Part shown: positions 1 to 53,453 of the stretch, piece after piece | Numbering within the stretch: position 1 is the first letter of the stretch | Layout: every line of letters begins with the position of its first letter | Assembly (NCBI GenBank): GCA_009392915.1 | Contig: CP045477.1 | Coordinates: forward strand, 224,001-288,000 | From: Candidatus Forterrea multitransposorum CG_2015-17_Forterrea_25_41 | Lineage (GTDB): Archaea > Iainarchaeota > Iainarchaeia > Iainarchaeales > CSSED10-239 | DNA length: 64,000 bases | Reading direction: 5' to 3' | Position numbers and translations under genes: made by a program | Notes under the pieces: generated by a model | Told to the model about the DNA's origin: nothing | Databases searched by the model: none | Seen by the model: only the letters and a program-made list of their open reading frames with translations

Positions 1-806
1 ACTATAATAAAATAAAAGATAAAAAAGTAAAAGAAGAAATAGATAAGTTAACAATAGGGTATAGTAATAAAGTAGATTATTTTGTAGATAAATTATCTCA
101 AGGTATTGCAAGAATAGCTGCTGCTTTTTATCCTAAAAAAGTTATCTTAAGAACTTCTGATTTTAAGACAGATGAGTATGCAAATTTAATTGGTGGAAAA
201 GAATATGAACCAATTGAATCTAATCCAATGCTTGGATGGAGAGGTGCTTCAAGATATTATCAAGGAAACTATAGAGAAGGTTTTGCTTTAGAGTGTAAGG
301 CTATTAAAAGAGTTAGAGAAGATATGGGTCTTACAAATTTAGAAGTAATGATACCTTTTTGTAGAACACTTGATGAAGCTAAAAAAGTAATTGCTGAACT
401 TAAGAAAAATGGTTTAGAACAAGGTAAAAATGGTCTTAAAGTTATTGGTATGTGTGAGATTCCTTCAAATGTAATTTTAGCTGAAGAATTTTTAAATATC
501 TTTGATGGTTTTTCAATAGGTTCAAATGACTTAACACAATTAACTTTAGGTCTTGATAGAAATTCAGAAATTGTTGCAAGTATTTATGATGAAAGAAATC
601 CTGCAGTAAAGGAACTTATTACAAATGTTGTAAAGATTGCAAAAAAGAAAAAGAAATACATAGGTATCTGTGGACAAGCACCTTCTGATTATCCTGACTT
701 TGCTGAGTTTTTAGTATCTATTGGTATTGATTCTATGAGTTTAAATCCAGATACTTTAATTAAGACAAAAATATTAGTTGCAAACAAAGAAAAATCTAAA
801 AAATAG
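1..806 (+). CDS. ppsA: Phosphoenolpyruvate synthase / PEP-utilising enzyme, C-terminal TIM-barrel domain (5' end lies outside the window)
   Basis: Frame 3 is open from nt 3 with no upstream Met. The translation ...[40 protein letters not shown]...[17 protein letters not shown]...[30 protein letters not shown] carries the hallmark motifs of the PEP-utilising enzyme C-terminal domain (PpsA/PPDK family). The ORF track shows only the Met-started part (228..806). Confidence 0.75.
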
Positions 807-807
807 A

Positions 808-833
808 TTTTTTTCTTTTTTTCTTTTTTTTTT
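808..833 (+). terminator. Oligo-T tract after ppsA (archaeal-type intrinsic terminator candidate)
   Basis: tttttttctttttttcttttttttttt lies immediately after the stop codon. Archaeal RNA polymerase terminates at oligo-dT. Confidence 0.4.
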
Positions 834-1121
834 ATAATATAAAATTATTTTTTAAAAATAAAAATAACTACTTAATTTTCAATAATTTATCTTTACATAA
901 TTATTTTTTGATTTGTAAACCATTATTAGAATATGGTTTGAAATACAAAAACATTCTTTTTAAATTATATTTGATTTACTCTATAATTCCTAAAAAAGAC
1001 TTTTTTTAGAAAACCAAATTAGATTGTAAAAGTAACTGTCAAACAGTCATTTTTTTTCTTTACAATTTAATAAAAACAAGTACTTTCAAACTAGTAAGAT
1101 TCATACAGTGGAGGAATAACT

Positions 1122-1367
1122 ATGCCTAGTAAAAGACAGAAAGGAATGGTTTTAATATCCGTAATTGCAACAGCTTTGTTTGTTTTATCAAATATTTTCT
1201 TTATTACTTTAAGTAGTAATGATTTAAAACAAACAGATATAAGCTATCAAGATAGAATTTCACAATATAAGATGCCTTTTTCAACAGCTCCTTATTGTGG
1301 AGATTTAACTTGTAATTATTCTTACGGAGAAAATCCATTAAATTGTCCTCAAGATTGTTATATGTAG
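1122..1367 (+). CDS. Small Cys-rich membrane/secreted protein, candidate archaeal type IV pilin-like protein (class III signal peptide)
   Basis: The N-terminus MPSKRQKG-MVLISVIATALFVLSNIFFI has a basic n-region, then K-G, then a hydrophobic stretch of about 22 aa. This is the pattern recognised by archaeal prepilin peptidases. The C-terminal part has 5 Cys (CGDLTCNYSYGENPLNCPQDC). Confidence 0.35.
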   Translation: MPSKRQKGMVLISVIATALFVLSNIFFITLSSNDLKQTDISYQDRISQYKMPFSTAPYCGDLTCNYSYGENPLNCPQDCYM

Positions 1368-1372
1368 GATGA

Positions 1373-1395
1373 TTTTTCTTTTTCTTTTTTTTTTA
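1373..1395 (+). terminator. Oligo-T tract
   Basis: tttttctttttctttttttttt directly follows the stop of the 81-aa ORF. Confidence 0.35.
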
Positions 1396-1474
1396 TTAAA
1401 AACATTTGTTTTTATTCTTTTTTATTCATAATATAATATACTATTTATTTTAATATTAAATAGATTTCACAAAA

Positions 1475-1483
1475 AAGGGGGAA
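1475..1483 (+). promoter_or_regulatory. Strong Shine-Dalgarno-like RBS (AAGGGGGAA) 8 nt upstream of the lemA start
   Basis: acaaaaaagggggaattaattATG. An almost identical motif precedes the HU gene at 52493..52501. Confidence 0.5.
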
Positions 1484-1489
1484 TTAATT

Positions 1490-2041
1490 ATGGCAGTTTG
1501 GTTAATTATTTTGATCATAGTTGGTGTACTTCTTTTAATTGTGTTTGGTATCTATAATAGTTTAATAAGATTAAGAAACAGAGTTAAAAATTCTTGGAGT
1601 CAAATCGATGTTCAATTAAAGAAAAGATTTGATTTAGTTCCAAACTTAATTGAAACTGTTAAAGGATATATGACACATGAAAAAGAGACTTTAACTAAGA
1701 TTACTCAACTAAGATCTCAAGCAATGAGTGCAACTGATATGAGTATGAAAGCAAAAGCTAATAATCAACTTTCAAAAGCTTTATCAGGTTTAAATATTGC
1801 TGTTGAAAGTTATCCTGATTTAAAAGCAAGTCAGAATTTTTTAATGCTTCAAGAAGAACTTTCAGGTATTGAAAATAAAATTGCATATGCAAGACAATTC
1901 TATAATGATTCAGTAATGATTTATAACAATAAAATAGAAATGTTTCCATCAAACATCTTTGCAAGCATGTTTAATTTTAAGAAAGAACAATTTTTCGAAG
2001 CACCAGAAGAAGAAAGAAAGAATGTTAAGGTTTCTTTCTAA
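1490..2041 (+). CDS. lemA: LemA family membrane protein
   Basis: An N-terminal TM helix is followed by NSLIRLRNRVKNSWSQIDVQLKKRFDLVPNLIETVKGYMTHEKETLTKITQLRSQA... and ...AYARQFYNDSVMIYNNKIEMFPSNIFASMFNF, which is a typical LemA (PF04011) sequence. Confidence 0.8.
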   Translation: MAVWLIILIIVGVLLLIVFGIYNSLIRLRNRVKNSWSQIDVQLKKRFDLVPNLIETVKGYMTHEKETLTKITQLRSQAMSATDMSMKAKANNQLSKALSGLNIAVESYPDLKASQNFLMLQEELSGIENKIAYARQFYNDSVMIYNNKIEMFPSNIFASMFNFKKEQFFEAPEEERKNVKVSF

Positions 2042-2062
2042 TTCTTTTTTTTCTTTTTTTTT
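2042..2062 (+). terminator. Oligo-T tract after lemA
   Basis: ttctttttttttcttttttttt. Confidence 0.4.
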
Positions 2063-2108
2063 ACAAACATATAAATACTTTATTGTGTATATTTATTTAT
2101 AAGATAAA

Positions 2109-2301
2109 GGGGACATGGGGTAGCCAGGTTAACCTTACAGGCTCCAGATATTTTTTAAATTAGAAAGTAATCTGGAACGCAGGATGTTTTTTTTTAAAAA
2201 AAACAGATGATTGATATTATACAGGTTTGTTTAATTTTATATTTATATAAAATTGAAATAGGAGAAACCTGTAGACCCGGGTTCGAATCCCGGTGTCCCC
2301 A
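2109..2301 (+). tRNA. tRNA-Trp(CCA) interrupted by an intron of about 119 nt at the canonical 37/38 position
   Basis: The 5' half GGGGACA-TG-GGGTAGCCAGGTTAACCT-T-ACAGG-CTCCAGA gives an anticodon CCA at 2144..2146. The 3' half (2267..2301) A-CCTGT-AGAC-CCGGG-TTCGAAT-CCCGG-TGTCCCC-A follows. The acceptor (GGGGACA/TGTCCCC), anticodon stem (ACAGG/CCTGT) and T stem (CCGGG/CCCGG) all pair. CCA is not encoded. Archaeal tRNA-Trp genes classically carry an intron. Confidence 0.7.
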
Positions 2302-2340
2302 TATCTTTCTTTTTTTATAAATTTTAAATTTTGATTATAA

Positions 2341-3324
2341 ATGATTTTTAGCTATTCTTCTTTTTTTAGTATTAAGCATGAAGATTTAAAAATAAATTTT
2401 GATCAAAATAAAGCTTGTTCTTTAGATGAATATCTTTTTTTAACACATGCACATACAGATCATGTTTGTAATACTTCTCAAAAGACTTTTGCAACTAAAG
2501 AAACTATTTCTCTTTTAGAGAATAGATATGATAATAATAAATTTAATTTTATAGAACTTGAATATAATAAACCATATTTTCTTAAAGCCGATTTTAAAGT
2601 TACTGCTTTAAATGCTGGACATATTTTAGGCAGTTCAATGTTTTTATTTGAAACTAATGATACATCTTTACTTTACACTGGAGATTTTAACACTAAAGAT
2701 TCTATTCTTTTAAAAGGTGCAAAACCAGTTATTGCAGATTATTTAGTTATTGATTCAACTTTTGGAAGAGAAGAGTTTTATTTTAAAGAAAGAAGTTTAG
2801 TTTATGATGATTTATTAAAAAAAATAAAACAAGATCTTTTTGAAAATAAATTTATAATTCTTGCAGGATATTCTTTAGGTAAAAATCAAGAAATAATTGC
2901 TTTTTTAAATAAATATCTAAATATAACTCCTTTAGTTGATAAAGAAACATATAGGTATTCTAAAATATATAACACCCATAATAATAATTTAAATTTTATT
3001 CTTTTAGATCATAATATTTATTCTTCAAATGTTTTAGTTATGCCTTTATCTTTAATGAATAGAAATTTAATTAAAAGTTTAGAACATCAAATCTATAAAA
3101 AAATATCTCCTTATGTTCTAACAGGTTGGAAATATTCAAGAGGAGCAAATCTTGTAAATGTTTCTGATCATTGTGATTTTAATTCTTTATTAGATTTTAT
3201 AAATGTTGTAAATCCTAAAAAAGTATTTACAATTCATGGTTTTACTAAAGATTTTGCAGATAGTATTAATTATAAGTTAGGAATTGAGGCTCAATGTGTT
3301 TCTTCCTTAAATAAAAAACTTTAA
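2341..3324 (+). CDS. Metallo-beta-lactamase fold hydrolase, beta-CASP-like (putative nuclease)
   Basis: It has the HxHxDH motif (LTHAHTDH) near the N-terminus, then GHILGSSMF, TGDF and a C-terminal ...DHCDFNSLLDFINVVNPKKVFTIHG that resembles beta-CASP motifs B/C. At 327 aa it is shorter than aCPSF/RNase J. Confidence 0.55.
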   Translation: MIFSYSSFFSIKHEDLKINFDQNKACSLDEYLFLTHAHTDHVCNTSQKTFATKETISLLENRYDNNKFNFIELEYNKPYFLKADFKVTALNAGHILGSSMFLFETNDTSLLYTGDFNTKDSILLKGAKPVIADYLVIDSTFGREEFYFKERSLVYDDLLKKIKQDLFENKFIILAGYSLGKNQEIIAFLNKYLNITPLVDKETYRYSKIYNTHNNNLNFILLDHNIYSSNVLVMPLSLMNRNLIKSLEHQIYKKISPYVLTGWKYSRGANLVNVSDHCDFNSLLDFINVVNPKKVFTIHGFTKDFADSINYKLGIEAQCVSSLNKKL

Positions 3325-3370
3325 ATAAATCTTTTTATATTTCTTTAGATATATATTTATATTAGGTGAA

Positions 3371-4285
3371 ATGATTATGGATTCTTATAAAACAGATTTT
3401 TATAGAGAAGTTAGAGTTAATAATTTGAAGACATATATGTTATTTTTCTTTTTTTTTATATTTATAGGGCTTATAGGTGTTGCTTTATATTTTATATTTT
3501 CTGACTTAGGTGTTGGTATTTTATTTTTTGCAGGGCTATTTGCTATAATATATGCTTTAGTTGGATATTTTGCAGGAGATAAAATTGTACTTTCAACCTC
3601 AAGAGCAAAACCAATAGATCCAAATAATAATCCAAAACATAAGCAATTAGATAATTTAGTTGAAGGTCTTTCTATGGCTGCAGGAATTCCAAAACCAAAA
3701 GTATATATTATTCAAGATAAATCTCCAAATGCTTTTGCAACTGGAAGAAATCCTGAAAATTCATCAGTTGCAGTAACCTCTGGGCTTTTAGAAGTTTTAA
3801 ATAGAGAAGAGCTTGAGGGTGTAATTGCTCATGAACTTTCTCATATTAAAAACAGAGATATAAAAGTTATGACAATGGCAACTGTTCTTTTTGGTCTTGT
3901 TATGATGGTTTCAGATATTGCTTTAAGAGGAATTATTTTTGGAGGTGCTTCTGGAGGAGGAAATGATAATAAAAGTCCTGTTCTTTTAATTATTGCTATA
4001 ATTTTTGTAATTCTTTCTCCTATTATTGCTGCAATGATACAAATGTCAATTTCAAGAAAAAGAGAATATTTAGCAGATGCATCAGGTGCACAAATTACAA
4101 GATATCCTAAAGGACTTTCAAATGCTTTAAGAAAAATTTCTGGAGTTAATATTCCTGTTTCAGGTGCTTCAAGAGGGAGTGCTCATCTTTATATTGCAAA
4201 TCCTTTTAGAGGTAAAAGTTTTTCTGGAATGTTTGCAACACATCCTCCTATTGAAGAAAGAATAAAAAGACTTGATGCAATGTAA
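3371..4285 (+). CDS. htpX: HtpX-like M48 zinc metalloprotease (membrane)
   Basis: It has N-terminal TM helices, the HExxH motif (IAHELSHIKNRD), further TM helices, and the C-terminal ...FATHPPIEERIKRL that is typical of HtpX. Confidence 0.85.
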   Translation: MIMDSYKTDFYREVRVNNLKTYMLFFFFFIFIGLIGVALYFIFSDLGVGILFFAGLFAIIYALVGYFAGDKIVLSTSRAKPIDPNNNPKHKQLDNLVEGLSMAAGIPKPKVYIIQDKSPNAFATGRNPENSSVAVTSGLLEVLNREELEGVIAHELSHIKNRDIKVMTMATVLFGLVMMVSDIALRGIIFGGASGGGNDNKSPVLLIIAIIFVILSPIIAAMIQMSISRKREYLADASGAQITRYPKGLSNALRKISGVNIPVSGASRGSAHLYIANPFRGKSFSGMFATHPPIEERIKRLDAM

Positions 4286-4384
4286 TTTTTTTAAAGGAAA
4301 TATATTTTCTTAAATTATGTGTGGGCATATACTCCACATTACTTTTTAAATTATTCTTAACTAAATATATTTGGTGATTATTAA

Positions 4385-4606
4385 ATGGCTAATATGACTT
4401 TAAGTATACCTGATGATCTTTTAAAAGAATTAAAAAAACACTCTTATATTAAATGGAGTGAAGTTGCAAGAATTGCTTTTGAAGAAAAGGTAAGTGCTTT
4501 AGAAAGAATAGATGTTTTTAAAGAATTTCAAGAAGCTGAAAGAGATTTTAAAGATGGAAAAAGTATTTCTTTAGAACAATTAAAAAAGGAACTTGGTAAA
4601 AAATGA
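4385..4606 (+). CDS. Small RHH/CopG-like protein (possible antitoxin-like DNA-binding protein)
   Basis: MANMTLSIPDDLLKELKK... resembles ribbon-helix-helix N-termini. The stop overlaps the start of the next gene (ATGA), which suggests translational coupling. Confidence 0.35.
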   Translation: MANMTLSIPDDLLKELKKHSYIKWSEVARIAFEEKVSALERIDVFKEFQEAERDFKDGKSISLEQLKKELGKK

Positions 4607-5673
4607 TTGAAGAAGAAATTGTAAATTTAATTTCAAAGATTTATGAAAAAAACCAAAGTGTTGTATCTATTTTTAAAGAAAATAATTTTTCTTTACAAAA
4701 GTCATTTTATAATCCTGAAGAAAATATAATTAATCCTATTGTTATTGAAAAAAATCAAAATTTATCATTTTTAGGAGTTGATTCTGGTTTTGTAAATAAA
4801 CAATTTAATTTTGCAAATTTAATTATTATTAAAGAAGCAGGAGCTTTATTTAATTATAAAGATTCAAAACTTTCTTCTGTTAAATATTTTCCAAAAATAT
4901 ATAATATTGCAAAACCATATCTTACAACTTCTTCTTTAGAAATTGAAGAAATTATTTGGAATACTTCTATTCTAAGGCTTAAAAAAGAACTTTCTCTTTC
5001 AAAAAAAATTATGGAATCTGAAAAAGTAAATTTTTCTTTAATAGATGGTTCTATTATTCCTCAATATTTATCTAAACCTTCAAAAGATTCAAAATATTAT
5101 AAAGATTATTCTTTTCTTTTATCCTTATTTTTTTCACTTTATGAAATTTCTAAAAATAAAAAAATATTTTTAGTAGGGTGTGTTGAAGATTCTAGAGCTG
5201 ATAGATTTTTTAATATTTTAAAAAATAATTATTTTAAAGATAAAATAAATTTTGATCTTTCAGATTCTTTTTTAGTATTTTCTCTTCTTTCAAAAAATCA
5301 AAGAACTTGTGTTTTTAGATATACTGATGATTTAAGAGAGCATCCTATCTTAAAAGATTTTCCAAAAGAAATTGTTGATAATTTATATGTTTGTTATTTA
5401 AAGCTTTCAGAAGAGGATTATCCTTTAAGAATAGAATTTATTTATTTTAAAGAATTTGGAATGTCTTTAAAAGAATATACAGATTATATAATTTCAAATA
5501 TTGCGTCTATCTCTTCTTTTAATAAAAGATATATATATCCTGCACCATTAATTGAAGCTGATTTACAGAGTAGACTAAAAATACAAGAAATTGATTTATT
5601 GGTTAGAAATTTTCTTGAAAAAACTAAAAAGTTTGGTCTTAAAGTGCCAAGAAGAGAAGCAAGGTCTTTTTGA
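4603..5673 (+). CDS. NurA-like 5'-3' nuclease domain protein (tentative)
   Basis: The motifs FLGVDSGF (about aa 55), FSLIDGSIIP (about aa 145), LVGCVEDSRADRF (GxxKDS-like) and the C-terminal YIYPAPLIEADL (a YPxPL-like motif) are arranged as in the NurA family (PF09376). I could not verify this against an HMM. Confidence 0.4.
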   Translation: MIEEEIVNLISKIYEKNQSVVSIFKENNFSLQKSFYNPEENIINPIVIEKNQNLSFLGVDSGFVNKQFNFANLIIIKEAGALFNYKDSKLSSVKYFPKIYNIAKPYLTTSSLEIEEIIWNTSILRLKKELSLSKKIMESEKVNFSLIDGSIIPQYLSKPSKDSKYYKDYSFLLSLFFSLYEISKNKKIFLVGCVEDSRADRFFNILKNNYFKDKINFDLSDSFLVFSLLSKNQRTCVFRYTDDLREHPILKDFPKEIVDNLYVCYLKLSEEDYPLRIEFIYFKEFGMSLKEYTDYIISNIASISSFNKRYIYPAPLIEADLQSRLKIQEIDLLVRNFLEKTKKFGLKVPRREARSF

Positions 5674-5754
5674 TTAATATATTTTAAATTTTCTAAACAT
5701 TTATAAACTTAATGTGTTACTATTTTATTATATTTTAATAATTATTAAAAATAG

Positions 5755-6174
5755 GTGATTAAATTGAAATTAAAAAAATTAAGTTTTATATTTATTTTAT
5801 TTGCTTTTTTAGTTTTTTCTGCAATTAATGTTTCTGCAGATATAACTACTAGAAGTCTTCCAACAATATATAAAGTTACAGGAGATATTGATATTCCTTC
5901 TCCAGGAACTAATTATTATTTTTTAGTAACATCTGTTAAAAACGGAACTACTTTATATCCTGTTTCAAAAACTCAATGTGCACAATATACTGTTTTGAAA
6001 GATCAATTAACTCAAGGTATGTTTATTGGTCCAATATCTTCAGAAGTTACAGGTTATAATAATAAAAGTTTTACTTTAAGATTAATGATACAAAAGTATA
6101 GTAGTCAAAGTTTATGTCAAACTGGAAATAATTCTATTAGTATGACAGGCAATTTAGGAGAACTTTATAGTTAG
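5755..6174 (+). CDS. Small secreted protein (Sec signal peptide)
   Basis: MIKLKLKKLSFIFILFAFLVFSAINVSA|DIT has a positive n-region, an h-region and an AxA-like cleavage site. The mature part is rich in N-glyc sequons. Confidence 0.45.
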   Translation: MIKLKLKKLSFIFILFAFLVFSAINVSADITTRSLPTIYKVTGDIDIPSPGTNYYFLVTSVKNGTTLYPVSKTQCAQYTVLKDQLTQGMFIGPISSEVTGYNNKSFTLRLMIQKYSSQSLCQTGNNSISMTGNLGELYS

Positions 6175-6191
6175 AGGGGGTTAGTTTATTT

Positions 6192-7550
6192 ATGAAGTCA
6201 AAATTTATATTTTTAATATTTTCTTTAGTTTTATTATCTGGATTTATTTTTTCTGCAACTCCTGCAGATCCACCAGTAAGCAATACAGTTTTTAGTGTTG
6301 ATATCGTGCTTCCAAATCCATATTATGGATTAATTGTTGCAGATGCATCTAATCTTGCAAATCCAGATTCTGTTTCAACTCAATCAATACTTAATAATGC
6401 TGTTGTATTAAGTAAGATTGGGGCTAGTAATCCTGGTGCAAACAAATTTTTAAAAATTAATTCTACTGGAAATTCTCTTGAATGGGCAACTGTTGAAGGT
6501 GGTTCTAGTTCAGGAGATGGTGTAGTTTATACTGCAACAAACCCTATAAGTATTTCAAATAATGTTATAAGTTTAAATGATTCTGGAATAACTACTTTAA
6601 AATTAGCAAATAGTGCTGTTACTTCTGATAAATTATCAGAAAATTCAGTTACAACTACTAAATTAAATAATTCTGCAGTAACTAATACTAAAATTGCAGA
6701 TGGTGCAGTTAATAAAGATAAAATTGCAGTTAAATCTGTAGATCATGCAAGACTTGAAGTTTATCCTTTAGATAAATGTCCTGCTAATAATGCAACTATA
6801 ATTTATAGAAATAATAGATTAGAATGGTCAAATTCTATTGAATGTGGATCTGACATGTTTATTACAGGGGATATTTCTTCTACAAGAACACAAACTTATT
6901 ATCCAGCTCCATTTAATCAATGTGTAAAAGATGTAACTCACACTGTATCAGGAACTTCTTGTACAGGTGCATCTTGTCTTGAAGAATGGAGTCTTTTTAG
7001 AAGTGGAGGAAGTAATGCTGTTAATAATACTGTAAACAATATTAATGGTACAAGATCTGTTACTTTTAATGCTTCTGAAAATAATTTATATGCTTCAAGT
7101 TATGATATAAGATATAATTTATCTCAACCATCAACAGGGAAATCTGCAACTAGAATTAGAAATAGTAGTTATAATGGTTTTAATGCAATTTCTAATGAAG
7201 AAAATACTTGTGCTCCAGTAGTTCCAAGTTCTTTAAATGTTTTAAGATTTCCATCTGATGGATGTATTGATTATTTTGAAGTTAAAGCATTAGTTAGTTG
7301 TGTTGGTTCTTGTAATTATGTAATGTATGTAGATAATCTTCCTCATTCAGAAGGTTCATTTACTGGTACTCAAACAATTACTGAGAATGTATATGTTTCA
7401 GACATAATACATAATAATCCTAAAGTGAAATTTAAGATTACAAATACAGGCCCTGCTGGACTTGTAGGTCTTGAAAGAATTACACCTGAGGGTACACTTC
7501 AAATTACACTTCCACAAATGGTTGATGGACTTCTTTGTTCACAAAATTAA
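6192..7550 (+). CDS. Secreted repeat protein with tandem 11-residue NSAVTxxKL repeats and a Cys-rich C-terminal domain
   Basis: The signal peptide is MKSKFIFLIFSLVLLSGFIFSA. The repeats are ITTLKLANSAVTSDKLSENSVTTTKLNNSAVTNTKIADGAVNKDKIAVKSV. There are more than 12 Cys in the C-terminal half. Confidence 0.5.
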   Translation: MKSKFIFLIFSLVLLSGFIFSATPADPPVSNTVFSVDIVLPNPYYGLIVADASNLANPDSVSTQSILNNAVVLSKIGASNPGANKFLKINSTGNSLEWATVEGGSSSGDGVVYTATNPISISNNVISLNDSGITTLKLANSAVTSDKLSENSVTTTKLNNSAVTNTKIADGAVNKDKIAVKSVDHARLEVYPLDKCPANNATIIYRNNRLEWSNSIECGSDMFITGDISSTRTQTYYPAPFNQCVKDVTHTVSGTSCTGASCLEEWSLFRSGGSNAVNNTVNNINGTRSVTFNASENNLYASSYDIRYNLSQPSTGKSATRIRNSSYNGFNAISNEENTCAPVVPSSLNVLRFPSDGCIDYFEVKALVSCVGSCNYVMYVDNLPHSEGSFTGTQTITENVYVSDIIHNNPKVKFKITNTGPAGLVGLERITPEGTLQITLPQMVDGLLCSQN

Positions 7551-7565
7551 GATTAATTTCTTAAT

Positions 7566-7603
7566 TTCTTTTTCTTTTTTTTATTTTTTTTTCTTAATTA
7601 AAT
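7566..7603 (+). terminator. Oligo-T tract
   Basis: tctttttcttttttttatttttttttctt lies after the 452-aa ORF. Confidence 0.4.
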
Positions 7604-7852
7604 ACCTTTTTAAATAGTTAGGTGTATATTATATCTAAATAATATATTTATTTTTAAGGTTATTAAGATATAAAAAGATCTAATCTCTTTAATAACAAAT
7701 TTTTATATCTTTTTTAAAAAAATATATTACTTTCATGTAGTTGTTTAAAAACTACATAACTTGGTTTGATTTTCAAACCAAAAAAACTATTTCTTATGGG
7801 AAATTTAAACCGAAGCTCTTTTAATACTTTCATGACATTATCATGATATATT

Positions 7853-8317
7853 ATGACACAAAATGACAATATCACAAAACAGATATTTTTAGAAAAGTTA
7901 TTAAAACAAGATACCAAAGAGCTGGGTTTGAATGATCTTATTCAGATCCAAGAGAAGTTTAACGATCCGTTGATACTTTCTGTAATATTACATCAACTTT
8001 TAGAAGAAAGAAAAAGAACAAACGAGATATTAAAAGATCTTTATGAAAAGTATGACTCTTTACAATTTTCTATTAAGAATAGTAAAGAATCTAGTAATTT
8101 AAATCAAGATCAAGATACAATTAATATCTTACCAGAAATAGATGATAAGATAATTTCTTTTATAAGAGCAAATCAAAAAGTTGATGCAGAACAAGTACAG
8201 GAAGCATTTAATTATAAAGGATCAAATGCAGCTTCTCAAAGACTTAATAGACTAGTAAAAGAAGGATACTTACGAAAAGTTCAAGCAGGAAGAAAGGTAT
8301 ACTTTATTGTAAAATGA
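7853..8317 (+). CDS. Winged-helix DNA-binding protein (putative transcriptional regulator)
   Basis: The C-terminus ...SNAASQRLNRLVKEGYLRKVQAGRKVYFIVK is a typical archaeal wHTH recognition helix plus wing. Confidence 0.45.
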   Translation: MTQNDNITKQIFLEKLLKQDTKELGLNDLIQIQEKFNDPLILSVILHQLLEERKRTNEILKDLYEKYDSLQFSIKNSKESSNLNQDQDTINILPEIDDKIISFIRANQKVDAEQVQEAFNYKGSNAASQRLNRLVKEGYLRKVQAGRKVYFIVK

Positions 8318-8481
8318 TTTTTCCCCTTAAAAATCATTTCCTTTAAAAAACCCCTTTAATATAGAAAAACTGTAAAAAACCCCTTTTTTACATTTTTTCA
8401 AAATTTATACCTTTTTTCCTTCTTTTAAAAATAAGTTTTTGTCTTTTATTTTAGTCATTTAATTTCCCTCTAAAAAACTTT

Positions 8482-8700
8482 AAAAAAGATTGTAAGGAAA
8501 ACTTTTTTGTTTCTTTCCTTCTTCTTTTCTGCCCTTTAATTATAAAAATACTTATTAAAAAAAAGATTGTAAGGAAAACTTTTTTGTTTCTTTCCTTCTT
8601 CTTTTCTGCCCTTTATTAAAAAATACTTATTAAAAAAAAGATTGTAAGGAAAACTTTTTTGTTTCTTTCCTTCTTCTTTTCTGCCCTTTATTTTTAACTT
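8482..8700. repeat. Three near-perfect tandem direct repeats of about 76 bp in an intergenic region
   Basis: The unit (a)aaaaagattgtaaggaaaacttttttgtttctttccttcttcttttctgcccttta plus about 20 nt recurs with gattgt at 8488, 8565 and 8640 (periods 77 and 75). Shorter aaaaaacccctttt motifs lie just upstream (8341..8400). Confidence 0.85.
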
Positions 8701-8857
8701 AAAAAACTAAAAAAACTATTTTTTTTAATTTTACAACTCTTTTTAAATATTTTGTATATATAGATTTAATACTAATGAAATTGCTTTTTAACCTATTAAG
8801 CAATCAATTTAGCTACATTATAATTTTATATTAAAAAGAAGGAGTTGACTTAAAAAT

Positions 8858-9193
8858 ATGAAACTAGAAAAAATTGGTGCATTTGCTTTTCTTGGTGGTA
8901 TCTTAATTTCAATTATTTTTGGACTTATTTACAATATTAACCATCCAGTATGGCTTTCAACTGTTTTAATTATTTTAGGATTAGTTGTTGGTCTTTTAAA
9001 CATTGAAGATAAAAACATATCTCTTTTCTTAATTGCATCCATTACATTTATTGCAACTAGTAACTCAATAAATGCAATACCTGTTATAGGAGATGTATTA
9101 AGAGGAGTTTTAGTTAATTTAGTATACTTTGTAGCTCCAGCTGCATTAGTAGTTTCAATTGTTGCAATTATTAGAGTTTCAAACTCTAAATAA
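8858..9193 (+). CDS. Small polytopic membrane protein (3-4 TM helices)
   Basis: Hydrophobic segments are present throughout. An RBS-like aaggag precedes the ATG. Confidence 0.45.
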   Translation: MKLEKIGAFAFLGGILISIIFGLIYNINHPVWLSTVLIILGLVVGLLNIEDKNISLFLIASITFIATSNSINAIPVIGDVLRGVLVNLVYFVAPAALVVSIVAIIRVSNSK

Positions 9194-17487: not shown

Positions 17488-19167
17488 ATGTTAAGAAATA
17501 AAAAAGGATTTAATTTATTTACTGCTTTAATCTCATTGATGCTTTTATCAATAACTCTAGTTTTTATTTTTAATATGGTTCAAACTGAAGAAAATTATTT
17601 AGAATTAATAAATAATCAATCTCAAGCTTCTGACCTCTTAACAATTGCAGATATTTCAAGAGCTGATGCTTTTAATAATTTTGTTGTTTCTTTTAGAGAA
17701 CAATGGATGTCTTTTAGAAGTGATCCTCGTTCTGAAATCATACTTAAAAGAAAAGATATTATGCTTGATTGGGATGGTTTTGTAGATTATTTTGCAGATT
17801 ATATTTTCTTTGATAATAGTTTTGAAAATTATTTTGCAGATAATATGGTTAGATCTTTAAATTATACAAATCCACCAACAGGTTATGCAATAAATGTTCC
17901 TAATTATTCTCGTGATGATTTATCTAGTATTATTAAAACAGCTTTTCTTGAAGCTGGAGATGATAAAATAAAAGTTGTAAGTTGTGAAAGAGAAGATGAG
18001 GTTTGTTTAGGTACACTTTATTTTACAATTGATACTAGAAAACTTTCTGCACAAGAATATGAAAAACTTCCAATGATAACTGTTAAAAGAAATGTTGATG
18101 ATGAAGTTATTCAAAGACCAGTTTTTGCAAAAAGAGCATACAGGATATATATTCCCTGGAGAGGTTTTCAAGCTTTAAGGACTGTTAGAAATTTTGCACT
18201 TGATGCTGATCTTGAAAAAGGAGAAACAACAGCTCAAATTATTGAATATTCAAAAGATTCAAGAGGTTTTTTAAACCCCTATATTCATTATACTCTCAAT
18301 AGTGCAAAACTTGGTGTTTGTGATATTGATAGTTGTGCTCTAAGAAAAGATTTATTTAAAACTGTTGAGTTTAATGGGTTTACTGGAGATGCATGTTCTA
18401 ATCCGCCTGGAGTTAGTAATGTTTCTGACAATGGAGGAATTACTGGATCTTTTACTGGAGAAGTTTCTCTTTCTAATAATCATAGTTACAATATTCAAGA
18501 TATAGATGGAACTGTAAAACCTATATATAATGATTTAGTTAAAACAACTATAGAAAACAATTTAGAATATAGAACTGATATAATACATGCAGGAAATAAT
18601 TTGCCATCAATCTCTTCTTCTTCAATTTTAGATGATGAATGTCAAATGTCTTTAACAACTGGAAATTTTTCAATATGTGATATACGTGTAAGACTTCCTT
18701 CTCCAAAAGTTACAAAAGAAGTTATTTCTGTAGGAACTGTTTCAGAATCTTTAAGTAGTTTATCTCAAGTTTCATTCAATCCTTCTGGTAGTTTTAATAA
18801 AGCTTCAAACTTAAGTCTCTCTATTGATGATGATTTAAATATTAATGTTTTTGATCAAGAAAGTACTATTCCTAATGAAACTGATAATCAATATCTATCA
18901 TGTACAACAATTGACTATATTGATTTATTATTTAAATTTGAAGAACAAGATGAAAAGTATATTTTTTCTCAAGATTCTAAAAATATTTATATTTTAATTC
19001 AAGATAGATTTTCAGATTATACTTTCTTTAATTCATTTGGAAGCGTTCCTAACTTTAGTGGAGGATATTTTCAAAAAAGAGAACTTCCTTCATTTACAGG
19101 AGGACAAGGTTGGACTTGTAAAAGTTATGAAGCAAATGAAGATGATGCAGCATGTGTTGCAGGTTAA
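17488..19167 (+). CDS. Large type IV pilin-like protein (archaeal class III signal peptide)
   Basis: MLRNKKG-FNLFTALISLMLLSITLVFIFNMV has a basic n-region, G at -1 and F at +1, then a hydrophobic stretch of about 24 aa. This resembles the bacterial GFTLIE pilin N-terminus but lacks E+5, as in archaeal pilins. The C-terminal region has paired Cys (WTCKSYEANEDDAACVAG). Confidence 0.6.
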   Translation: MLRNKKGFNLFTALISLMLLSITLVFIFNMVQTEENYLELINNQSQASDLLTIADISRADAFNNFVVSFREQWMSFRSDPRSEIILKRKDIMLDWDGFVDYFADYIFFDNSFENYFADNMVRSLNYTNPPTGYAINVPNYSRDDLSSIIKTAFLEAGDDKIKVVSCEREDEVCLGTLYFTIDTRKLSAQEYEKLPMITVKRNVDDEVIQRPVFAKRAYRIYIPWRGFQALRTVRNFALDADLEKGETTAQIIEYSKDSRGFLNPYIHYTLNSAKLGVCDIDSCALRKDLFKTVEFNGFTGDACSNPPGVSNVSDNGGITGSFTGEVSLSNNHSYNIQDIDGTVKPIYNDLVKTTIENNLEYRTDIIHAGNNLPSISSSSILDDECQMSLTTGNFSICDIRVRLPSPKVTKEVISVGTVSESLSSLSQVSFNPSGSFNKASNLSLSIDDDLNINVFDQESTIPNETDNQYLSCTTIDYIDLLFKFEEQDEKYIFSQDSKNIYILIQDRFSDYTFFNSFGSVPNFSGGYFQKRELPSFTGGQGWTCKSYEANEDDAACVAG

Positions 19168-53199: not shown

Positions 53200-53271
53200 G
53201 TCATAATAGTGTAGTGGTTAGCATAGGAGTCTGTGGAGCTTCTGGCCCGGGTTCAAATCCCGGTTATGACC
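53200..53271 (+). tRNA. tRNA-His(GTG) with a genome-encoded G-1
   Basis: G(-1)-GTCATAA-TA-GTGT-AGTGGTTA-GCAT-A-GGAGT-CTGTGGA-GCTTC-TGGC-CCGGG-TTCAAAT-CCCGG-TTATGAC-C. The anticodon is GTG. The anticodon stem has two G.U pairs. The extra 5' G pairs with discriminator C73, which is the hallmark of tRNA-His. It lies directly upstream of hisS. Confidence 0.65.
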
Positions 53272-53453
53272 CTTTTTAACCTTCCTTTTAAGAAAAGAAA
53301 CGTTAACGAAAGAAAAGTAAACTTTCTTTTAGGTAAAGAAACGGTATAACAAAAGAAAAGTAAAAAGAGATGTTAAAATGAAAAAAAAAATAAAAACATT
53401 TACTTTTTATATGTTTTTGTAATTAAAATATAATATAGAAAAAAAGATTAAAT

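Follow-up and report, generated by a model that had tools for sequence, protein, structure and literature searches.

Three near-identical tandem repeats on the plus strand of the Candidatus Forterrea multitransposorum genome, situated behind the gene for a 154-aa winged helix-turn-helix (wHTH) protein, are copies of a single stem-loop module, and this module forms part of a pyrimidine-rich element that follows homologues of the same gene in Iainarchaeota and Micrarchaeota (DPANN archaea). The repeats lie in a 64,000-nucleotide stretch of contig CP045477.1 (hereafter the window, with positions counted from its first letter) and had been noticed in an earlier reading of this DNA (the original prediction), which listed tandem promoter or operator sites, a structured non-coding RNA (ncRNA), an origin-like repeat cluster and an integration scar as possible roles. 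Of these, the structured ncRNA is favored here by a hairpin conserved in ten modules and by long-range pairing that is supported by covariation. Judged from sequence comparison, we consider it moderately probable that the conserved element is a structured 3' element of the wHTH gene acting as a regulatory RNA. The repeat itself is a minor and young amplification, and the conserved element, which appears to be previously undescribed, is the object of interest.

Structure of the Tandem Repeat

The gene-free gap that holds the repeats measures 540 bp (8318-8857) rather than the ~360 bp first proposed, and is bordered, as had been recognized, by the wHTH gene (7853-8317, 154 aa) and a membrane-protein gene (8858-9193, 111 aa). 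Tandem Repeats Finder (TRF) reports a repeat at 8482-8697 (period 75, 2.8 copies, 95% matches, score 404); the near-identical threefold repetition of the original prediction is therefore real, but it fills only part of the interval 8341-8700 that had been assigned to it. A repeat search of the window places the unit starts at 8482, 8559 and 8634, spaced by 77 and then 75 nt. The first 57 nt of each unit, AAAAAAGATTGTAAGGAAAACTTTTTTGTTTCTTTCCTTCTTCTTTTCTGCCCTTTA, are identical, and the final ~20 nt, an A/T tail, are variable: the tails of copies 1 and 2 differ by a 2-nt indel and by substitutions, and the tail of copy 3 is merely flanking sequence. The description of copies that differ only in their last few bases thus holds for the identical 57 nt, but falls short of the ~20 nt that differ. 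The units open with a run of A and are pyrimidine-rich, and CCCC motifs are found in the gap at 8323-8326, 8351-8354 and 8380-8383, all in agreement with the earlier description. A 50-nt core matches exactly three times (0 mismatches; 0 matches expected by chance in 64 kb), and no further copy with up to three mismatches exists in the 64-kb window. No open reading frame (ORF) of at least 20 aa lies inside the repeats.

The first copy (8482-8558, 77 nt, + strand) consists of the A run, a purine arm (AAAAGA..AAGGAAA), a T6 loop, a pyrimidine arm (TTTCCTT..TCTTTT) and the A/T tail, with the pyrimidine arm contained in the box CCTTCTTCTTTTCTGCC at 8517-8533. The second (8559-8633, 75 nt) and third (8634-8697) copies, on the same strand, carry this box at 8594-8610 and 8669-8685. 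Runs of T5 (8691-8695) and T8 (8719-8726) after copy 3 are candidate oligo-U termination signals on the plus strand.

Conservation of the Repeated Module

Orthologous gaps in AT-rich relatives whose proteins are 80, 75, 68, 65 and 47% identical to the 154-aa protein all contain the hairpin together with CCTTCTTCTTTTCTGCC; the relative at 80% identity (L007) has two diverged hairpin copies, and each of the others has one. The order of blocks is the same in these gaps: a pair of CCCC boxes, then a pyrimidine box with CTGCC at its end, a spacer rich in A, and the hairpin, in which the invariant CCTTCTTCTTTTCTGCC forms the 3' arm and precedes (C)TTATT. Ten orthologous modules fold alike (z-scores of -1.6 to -4.1), with a purine-rich 5' arm paired to CUUCUUCUUUU and CUGCC left single-stranded. 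Their apical stems vary in sequence yet stay complementary (AAGGAAA/TTTCCTT, AGAAGGA/TCCTTCT, AAGGTG/CACCTT, GAAGG/CCTTC, GTAAT/ATTAC). The 76-nt unit of the window is this conserved module, tripled. In a MAFFT alignment of ten or more modules, the variable 5' arms were scrambled. The exact 17-mer box, a low-complexity word, has at least 120 matches in metagenomes, almost all of them due to chance, and among the matches listed only three loci (L137, L181 and L199) are relatives.

Distribution of the Element in DPANN Archaea

To place the module in a wider context, we used ~54 homologues of the 154-aa protein from the protein database and 77 related loci from Genome Taxonomy Database (GTDB) species representatives, nearly all of which are labelled Iainarchaeum/Diapherotrites, with a few labelled Micrarchaeota/Anstonellales, and which include the complete AR10 genome; more than 80 orthologous loci were compared overall. 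We counted 47 occurrences of CCTCCTTTGCC, distributed over 43 of the 77 loci and always on the plus strand, 0-400 nt 3' of the homologue of the wHTH gene; the remainder of 355 kb of related loci has none on either strand. The CCTTCTTCTTTTCTGCC box of the window is the AT-rich form of this box. A search for further copies, as suggested along with the original prediction, leaves the core unique within 64 kb and the box confined, in 355 kb of related loci, to its place behind the regulator gene, and within these bounds a MITE or other dispersed repeat was rejected.

In GC-richer lineages, the sequence found directly after the stop codon is typically ACTCCCAACCCCCACCTCCTTTGCC, followed after ~20 nt by CCTCCCCTTAAATGCCCCCTCCTTTGCC. 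The equivalent of the window's box in these GC-rich relatives is CCCCCUCCUUUGCC, which contains an anti-Shine-Dalgarno-like core, CCUCC, and runs at once into oligo-T. Composition is strongly skewed, with 28.9% C and 11.9% G in the first 120 nt, and CCCC present in 62 of 72 loci as against GGGG in 6 of 72. The C runs are exposed by hairpins or loops, as CCCC in the window and as ACCCCCACC or CUCCCAAC in the GC-richer relatives. Other clades (AR10, L044, L047, L049, L055, L060, L062 and the Micrarchaeota-labelled L061 and L078) have a variable hairpin of 10-20 bp with a loop of ACCCCCAC or GACCCCCC. Near-invariant sequences of 17-25 nt persist between lineages in which the flanking protein is just 35-45% identical.

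The gene that follows the element varies. In many lineages it encodes a 431-aa HerA-like ATPase, and elsewhere rpL10e, a Cys-rich protein or convergent genes are found; in the clade of the window the 111-aa gene comes next, and then a series of giant genes. The element remains behind the regulator gene even where another gene lies downstream, and therefore does not mark the giant-gene array, contrary to the suggestion of a recombination or integration scar at the left edge of that array.

Searches of known RNA families returned nothing comparable: at the Rfam gathering threshold, the window and 20 related loci contain only tRNAs, and a permissive Rfam scan of 8300-8870 yielded noise only (E > 1). 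No prior description of the element was found in the literature searched.

In several clades (L056, L063, L066, L071, L072, L074, L075, L085, L086 and L089) the frame of the wHTH gene runs on into the C-rich element, giving Pro/Thr-rich C-terminal tails such as ..LPTPNHP.. and ..RPTPTPSM.., which indicates that the position of the stop codon relative to the element is not fixed. Two coding readings, an MPPPLP mini-ORF and a read-through peptide, were rejected because the frames change from lineage to lineage. In one locus (L027, 3047-5401), the downstream HerA-like ATPase gene contains an intein with a LAGLIDADG endonuclease and encodes 785 or more aa, compared with 431 aa elsewhere.

Pairing Between the Coding Sequence and the First Pyrimidine Box

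Evidence for long-range structure comes from the end of the wHTH coding sequence (CDS), which encodes the conserved wing of the protein (..GRKVYFIVK or ..SGRKVLYLAR) and whose last ~20-30 nt are complementary to the first pyrimidine box of the element. In the window, the 5' arm AAGCAGGAAGAAAGGTATA (8283-8301, + strand) spans the codons for QAGRKVY and the 3' arm, box 1 (TATACCTTTTTTCCTTCTT, 8406-8424, + strand), is its complement (inverted repeat I1). The duplex of these arms, here termed P1, has a predicted energy of -26.5 kcal/mol (z -5.3 relative to shuffled sequences) and is present in both the minimum free energy (MFE) and the centroid folds. In the plus-strand fold of 8270-8730 (z -3.8), P1 encloses two hairpins with CCCC loops and is followed by the three module hairpins. 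The first enclosed hairpin (8312-8339), found in the MFE and centroid folds, would place the stop codon (8315-8317) within the stem and CCCCUU (8323-8328) within the loop, and the second (8364-8399), seen as inverted repeat I5 and in the fold, is formed by GAAAAACUGUAAAAAA and UUUUUUACAUUUUUUC around a CCCC loop (8380-8383).

This pairing recurs among the related loci. The duplex between the CDS end and downstream sequence has z < -2 in 48 of 73 loci, and cognate pairs average -26.2 kcal/mol compared with -19.8 for non-cognate pairs; in 47 of 72 loci the cognate partner ranks among the best 10%. Moreover, synonymous changes in the CDS are matched by changes in the box: GCA to GCT accompanies TGCTT to AGCTT in L019, GGA to GGG accompanies TCCT to TCCC in L013, and GTATAC to GTATAT or GTTTAT accompanies a corresponding change in box 1 in L011 and L021. 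Across an alignment of 23 sequences of the GC-rich type (A2), 80.9% of cells pair, versus 48-58% when the arms are slid by 1-3 columns, and 10 of the 24 pairs show double changes, with 27 double-change cells versus 11.1 in shuffled alignments (a value reached in 0 of 500 shuffles); for these counts P1 was set by hand on the basis of a single sequence, and the shuffles take no account of phylogeny. Synonymous variation is lowered over the last ~9 codons. Compensatory changes support P1 as well as the apical stems of the modules, and the hairpins with C-rich loops have variable stems, as expected of a structured cis-acting or 3' untranslated region (UTR) element.

Strand of the Putative Transcript

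The strand tests are mixed, and we lean toward the plus (coding) strand. G.U pairs outnumber A.C by 29:8 in the hairpins that are independent of the CDS, the P1 helices of the window clade are 4-8 kcal/mol more stable on the plus strand, and a T5-T7 run directly follows the last box in GC-rich lineages, as a transcript of the plus strand would be expected to end. A scan of both strands of the gap with a position weight matrix (PWM) derived from the 74 regulator promoters revealed no additional promoter, this PWM being weak for the AT-rich clade.

A number of observations weigh against a plus-strand regulatory RNA. Applied to the MAFFT alignment A2, RNAalifold did not recover P1 unaided and reported only a 6-bp pairing of the CDS with box 2, without covariation. 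In some clades a reading frame crosses part of the C-rich element, and complementarity of the box to the start regions of the 27 window genes does not exceed that to random internal sequence (means of -5.95 and -5.48 kcal/mol), so that targeting of ribosome-binding sites (RBS) receives no support. The ratio of G.U to A.C is 54:42 in the P1 helices of the GC-rich (type-A) loci, T5-T6 runs just after the stop codon and within each module could stop a plus-strand transcript early, and three features look better on the opposite strand: P1 duplexes are slightly more stable there in many GC-rich loci, module hairpins are equally or more stable, and in every AT-rich relative U5-U8 follows every module hairpin in the manner of a small-RNA terminator.

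These last three features would be explained by tandem small-RNA genes on the minus strand, or by a single antisense RNA, each unit being ~45-55 nt long (GGGCAGAAAAGAAGAAGG, a loop, CCUUACAAUC and U8), purine-rich and Shine-Dalgarno-like, with an oligo-U run of its own as the end of each gene; TATA-like A/T stretches also lie upstream of GGGCAG in several species. We regard this arrangement as unlikely. No conserved promoter was found at a fixed distance, TATA look-alikes are everywhere at 22% GC, and GC-rich lineages lack an oligo-U stop before the antisense transcript would enter the regulator gene. Both the 29:8 excess of G.U over A.C and the greater stability of P1 in the window clade also point to the plus strand.

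Possible Mechanism and Function

If the element acts as a plus-strand regulatory RNA, it would form a long 3' UTR of the regulator mRNA, or a 3'-derived RNA would arise from it by processing. P1 would join the end of the CDS to the first pyrimidine box, with the stop codon inside the enclosed loop, and in the terminal modules the purine-rich 5' arm would mask the invariant CCUUCUUCUUUU, leaving CUGCC(C)UU single-stranded. The repeated C/U-rich boxes could then serve as multivalent binding sites for a trans-acting factor, either a purine-rich RNA segment, such as a ribosome-binding site or the GGAAGAAAGG tract of the gene itself, or else a protein that binds RNA; access would be controlled by the hairpins, and the dose by how many boxes there are. 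Modules are seen in numbers of 1, 2 or 3, and C-box units in 1.6 or 4.6 copies. The GC-rich form also includes CACCUCCUU, the same sequence as at the 3' end of the 16S rRNA. A more far-reaching proposal, which we offer as speculation and think rather unlikely, is that the element represents a class of regulatory RNA new to archaea, deeply conserved in Iainarchaeota and at least some Micrarchaeota. This RNA would be joined to the mRNA of a core, auto-repressed regulator, would consist of amplifiable modules displaying anti-Shine-Dalgarno-like or poly-C motifs, and could work as a decoy or sponge for factors or RNAs that recognize the 16S 3' end or Shine-Dalgarno (SD)-like purine tracts, its dosage being adjusted by tandem duplication.

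The location of the element at the 3' end of a gene, its C-rich and G-poor composition, the oligo-T directly after the last box in GC-rich lineages and the T5 and T8 runs after copy 3 would also be in keeping with a mere reinforced terminator or insulator, in which a mostly unstructured RNA is a loading and cleavage substrate for FttA/aCPSF1 and stacked modules of hairpin and U run stop read-through. FttA is described as cleaving exposed nascent RNA at CA/CC dinucleotides once translation stops, and bacterial Rho utilization (rut) sites are likewise C-rich and G-poor (PMC8501993), so that C-rich, G-poor RNA after a stop codon followed by U runs resembles both. Nevertheless, general terminators do not share the extreme sequence conservation, specificity for one locus and conserved helices found here: near-invariance over 17-25 nt far exceeds what termination needs, the box follows no other gene in the window or in the 355 kb of related loci, and a helix reaching back into the CDS is not a terminator feature. 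Moreover, archaeal intrinsic termination requires no hairpins (PMC8501993), and termination as the sole role of the element is in our judgment improbable.

Recent Amplification at the Strain Level

The three-copy gap, with the same flanking proteins, is present on independent assemblies, namely ~0.66-Mb contigs from JGI and a metagenome-assembled genome (MAG) from NCBI (L001-L003); the same structure at the same place effectively rules out an assembly artefact, a possibility that had been raised with the original prediction. The repeat itself varies, at 2-3 copies, between strains with 96-98% identity in the flanking DNA. Two of them (L004 and L005) possess three copies with a T-to-A change in the hairpin loop, confined to copy 2 or present in the first two copies, and another (L015) has two 76-nt copies. 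The contig of L006 terminates within the repeat, and copy numbers obtained from short reads are therefore uncertain and best taken as minimum estimates.

Set against the wider phylogeny, the module is single in most relatives, present as two diverged copies at 80% protein identity and as two or three identical copies among the 96-98% strains. Triplication is thus a recent, species-specific event involving one stem-loop module. The combination of identical copies within a genome, variants shared between copies and differing counts points to recent unequal recombination or slippage with concerted evolution, by which the module would have been tripled in the window species and its copies kept identical. 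The spread in copy number, the identity of copies and the polymorphism common to copies within a strain accord well with the very recent expansion or active maintenance first proposed.

A second tandem repeat lies in the same gap. It is built from a 29-nt unit, CTKTAAAAAACCCCTTTAATATAGAAAAA (also CTGTAAAAAACCCCTTTAATATAGAAAAA), present in 1.6 copies (8341-8390, + strand) with a AAAAAACCCCTTT box in each; the unit extends over 4.6 copies in L005 (1990-2140), which is ~98% identical. The unit carries the CCCC box and varies in number, which implies that CCCC boxes are amplified too, and at the same locus a CCCC-box unit would have been amplified in one strain. Repeat expansion seems to be a general tendency of this gap: in the 100-300 nt that follow the conserved boxes, many GC-richer relatives (L023, L028, L037, L041 and L065) have lineage-specific short repeats and palindromes of T and A runs, including five copies of AAAAAATCC (L023), three large repeated hairpins (L028) and repeats of TTGCCCAAAAGAAAGAA (L065).

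The Winged-Helix Regulator and Its Promoter

The 154-aa protein (7853-8317, + strand), conserved across Iainarchaeota and in some Micrarchaeota-labelled MAGs, consists of an N-terminal helical region and a C-terminal wHTH domain. Pfam and Protein Data Bank (PDB) profile matches are weak and of the BlaI/MarR type, and an AlphaFold2 (AF2) model (pLDDT 70.6) has AspA, ArsR/SmtB and MarR as its best fold matches. The promoter region (7810-7852, + strand) comprises a BRE/TATA-like stretch, CCGAAG..TTTTAATA (7810-7826), and a 17-bp palindrome, TCATGACATTATCATGA (7830-7846), located 6 nt before the ATG. The same arrangement, with a TATA box, (A/G)TCATGA-N5-TCATGATA and an ATG 4-6 nt further on, is found in 74 of 78 loci; the proximity of TATA box and palindrome to the ATG suggests that the mRNA is leaderless. 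TCATGA-N5-TCATGA is a likely auto-operator of the regulator, which would then probably be auto-repressed. The promoter (7810-7875, and at the corresponding place in L015-L091) hardly varies across the phylum; a third TCATGA is frequently found in codons 3-5, and TRF reports a 10-nt period at 7830-7874.

In the 64 kb of the window, the palindrome occurs once, at 7830-7846, and not in the repeats. The TATA-like box of the downstream operon of the 111-aa and giant genes, TTTTTAAATA (8740-8749, + strand), also lies outside them, and TTTTTAAATATTTTGTA is conserved in L007, L009, L013, L181 and L199. These positions argue against the tandem promoter or operator sites that had been envisaged.

A broader version of a DNA-level role, in which iterons, a centromere-like site or an operator array of double-stranded boxes is bound cooperatively by the wHTH protein or another protein, more strongly with more copies, draws on the proximity of the array to a gene for a DNA-binding protein and on the variable number of both the 76-nt and the 29-nt units. 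AspA, the best PDB fold match of the wHTH protein (E 3e-4), is the centromere-binding protein of pNOB8, hairpins after box 2 in GC-rich lineages are nearly all perfect palindromes without wobble pairs, and the strand tests are not decisive. However, the palindrome found at the promoters of 74 of 78 loci is absent from the repeats, whose boxes are strand-asymmetric and non-palindromic, and the helices change in sequence while staying complementary, which is unexpected for protein-recognition sites. The AspA match is itself that of a generic wHTH fold (TM 0.57 over ~70 residues), with ArsR and MarR scoring nearly equally. On this evidence we think a protein-binding DNA array unlikely.

Relation to Known Systems

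The sopC region of the F plasmid is a centromere array beside the gene for its binding protein. Like sopC and the AspA site of pNOB8 (PDB 5k5q), the window has tandem direct repeats beside a gene for a winged-helix DNA-binding protein, but its boxes are non-palindromic, the palindrome of the protein is elsewhere, ParA/ParB genes are absent and the helices covary.

Parallels to a regulatory RNA at the 3' end of the wHTH gene can be drawn with several RNA systems. We know of no CsrA-like partner in archaea, the protein counterpart of the CsrB/RsmZ-type RNAs, which are multi-motif sponges displaying a GGA motif. The element resembles them in its short repeated motifs on tandem hairpins and its lineage-variable copy number, and the differences in copy number between lineages suggest that multivalency matters; its motif, however, is pyrimidine-rich, and a sponge role here is conjectural. 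RsaE/RoxS of Firmicutes are small RNAs with C-rich loops and, like the predicted folds described here, expose C runs on several hairpins with the potential to pair with G-rich ribosome-binding sites. The element differs from them in having no Rfam match, in being fused to the 3' end of a coding gene and in showing no target enrichment in the window.

In Staphylococcus aureus, an anti-SD motif (UCCCCUG) in the 3' UTR of the icaR mRNA pairs with the 5' UTR of the same mRNA. A C-rich, anti-SD-like motif in the 3' UTR of a regulator and long-range pairing within the mRNA, here predicted, are common to both. Unlike icaR, the element belongs to a putatively leaderless mRNA, has the 3' end of the CDS as its partner, carries a motif that is repeated and amplifiable, and comes from an archaeon. 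Pairing of the 3' UTR with a 5' SD sequence in the manner of icaR was dropped as a candidate, because the mRNA is taken to be leaderless. An archaeal precedent for an ncRNA acting through anti-RBS complementarity is provided by sRNA41 of Methanosarcina mazei, which masks ribosome-binding sites in polycistronic mRNAs (PMC5867862). sRNA41, however, is an intergenic, trans-acting small RNA of a methanogen without sequence or structural relation to the element, for which RBS targeting is unsupported.

Taken together, the element is better conserved than the neighboring protein, overlaps the end of a CDS, occupies one locus per genome and varies between strains in its number of modules, traits that make it a concrete, testable candidate for post-transcriptional control in DPANN archaea. 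The genomes of these organisms are tiny and tightly packed, and their ncRNA and post-transcriptional control have barely been studied. For annotation, the analysis adds a candidate RNA motif absent from Rfam and the likely auto-operator TCATGA-N5-TCATGA of an uncharacterized, phylum-wide winged-helix regulator. The case is also a cautionary one, in that a young tandem repeat could be understood only by way of distant orthologous loci with a single-copy module.

Genomic Context and Excluded Classes

The window has ~25% G+C and its plausible genes are all on the plus strand, including the 29 plausible-gene ORFs of at least 100 aa across the site. The genes scanned with Pfam at 228-9193 encode a PEP-utilising enzyme, LemA, a metallo-beta-lactamase fold protein, an M48 peptidase, NurA, two unassigned proteins, the wHTH protein and the membrane protein, and no orc1/cdc6 is among these neighbors; the 559-aa gene at 17488-19167 has no Pfam match. 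The cumulative GC skew climbs steadily and shows no inflection, only a local dip for which the C-rich repeats account, and the boxes are direct repeats that seem to lack the dyad of origin recognition boxes (ORB). A replication-origin role, one of those initially proposed, is contradicted by the co-directional genes, the skew and the lack of orc1/cdc6 nearby.

A CRISPR array had been dismissed from the outset, and rightly so, as 57 nt of each 75-77-nt unit are identical and the ~20-nt "spacers" are nearly so. No Cas family was detected by Pfam in ten proteins (nine neighbors and the product of the 559-aa gene inside the giant-gene cluster), and no cas or defence gene by PADLOC in six (four neighbors and two within the giant-gene cluster); the sole matches in these scans were weak and of wHTH level. 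The long A/T-rich gap with direct repeats, in which the L006 contig ends, is what an origin repeat cluster, a MITE, an integration scar, a CRISPR remnant or an assembly artefact might look like. With neither skew inflection nor a neighboring orc1/cdc6, all genes in one direction, no other copies in the window or in related loci, no cas or defence match among the six proteins scanned with PADLOC, near-identical "spacers", agreement between independent assemblies and vertical conservation at the orthologous position, each of these readings is highly improbable.

A type III toxin-antitoxin system with a ToxI-like RNA was also rejected: the next gene encodes a 111-aa membrane protein without Pfam or PADLOC match, and most relatives have just one copy of the module, which remains associated with the gene upstream of it.

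The giant array at 9363-51577 is made up of plus-strand ORFs of 2671, 559, 2323, 1867, 964, 2466, 120, 809 and 2147 aa. Orthologues of its first giant ORF have a faint CarboxypepD_reg match, and in most other lineages the element is not followed by the array. Two further features of the window were recorded, namely another long gene-free stretch at 807-1489 (684 nt), with T-rich low-complexity repeats at its ends, and a 41-nt tandem repeat at 53277-53364 (2.1 copies, 85% matches) directly after tRNA-His (53200-53272).

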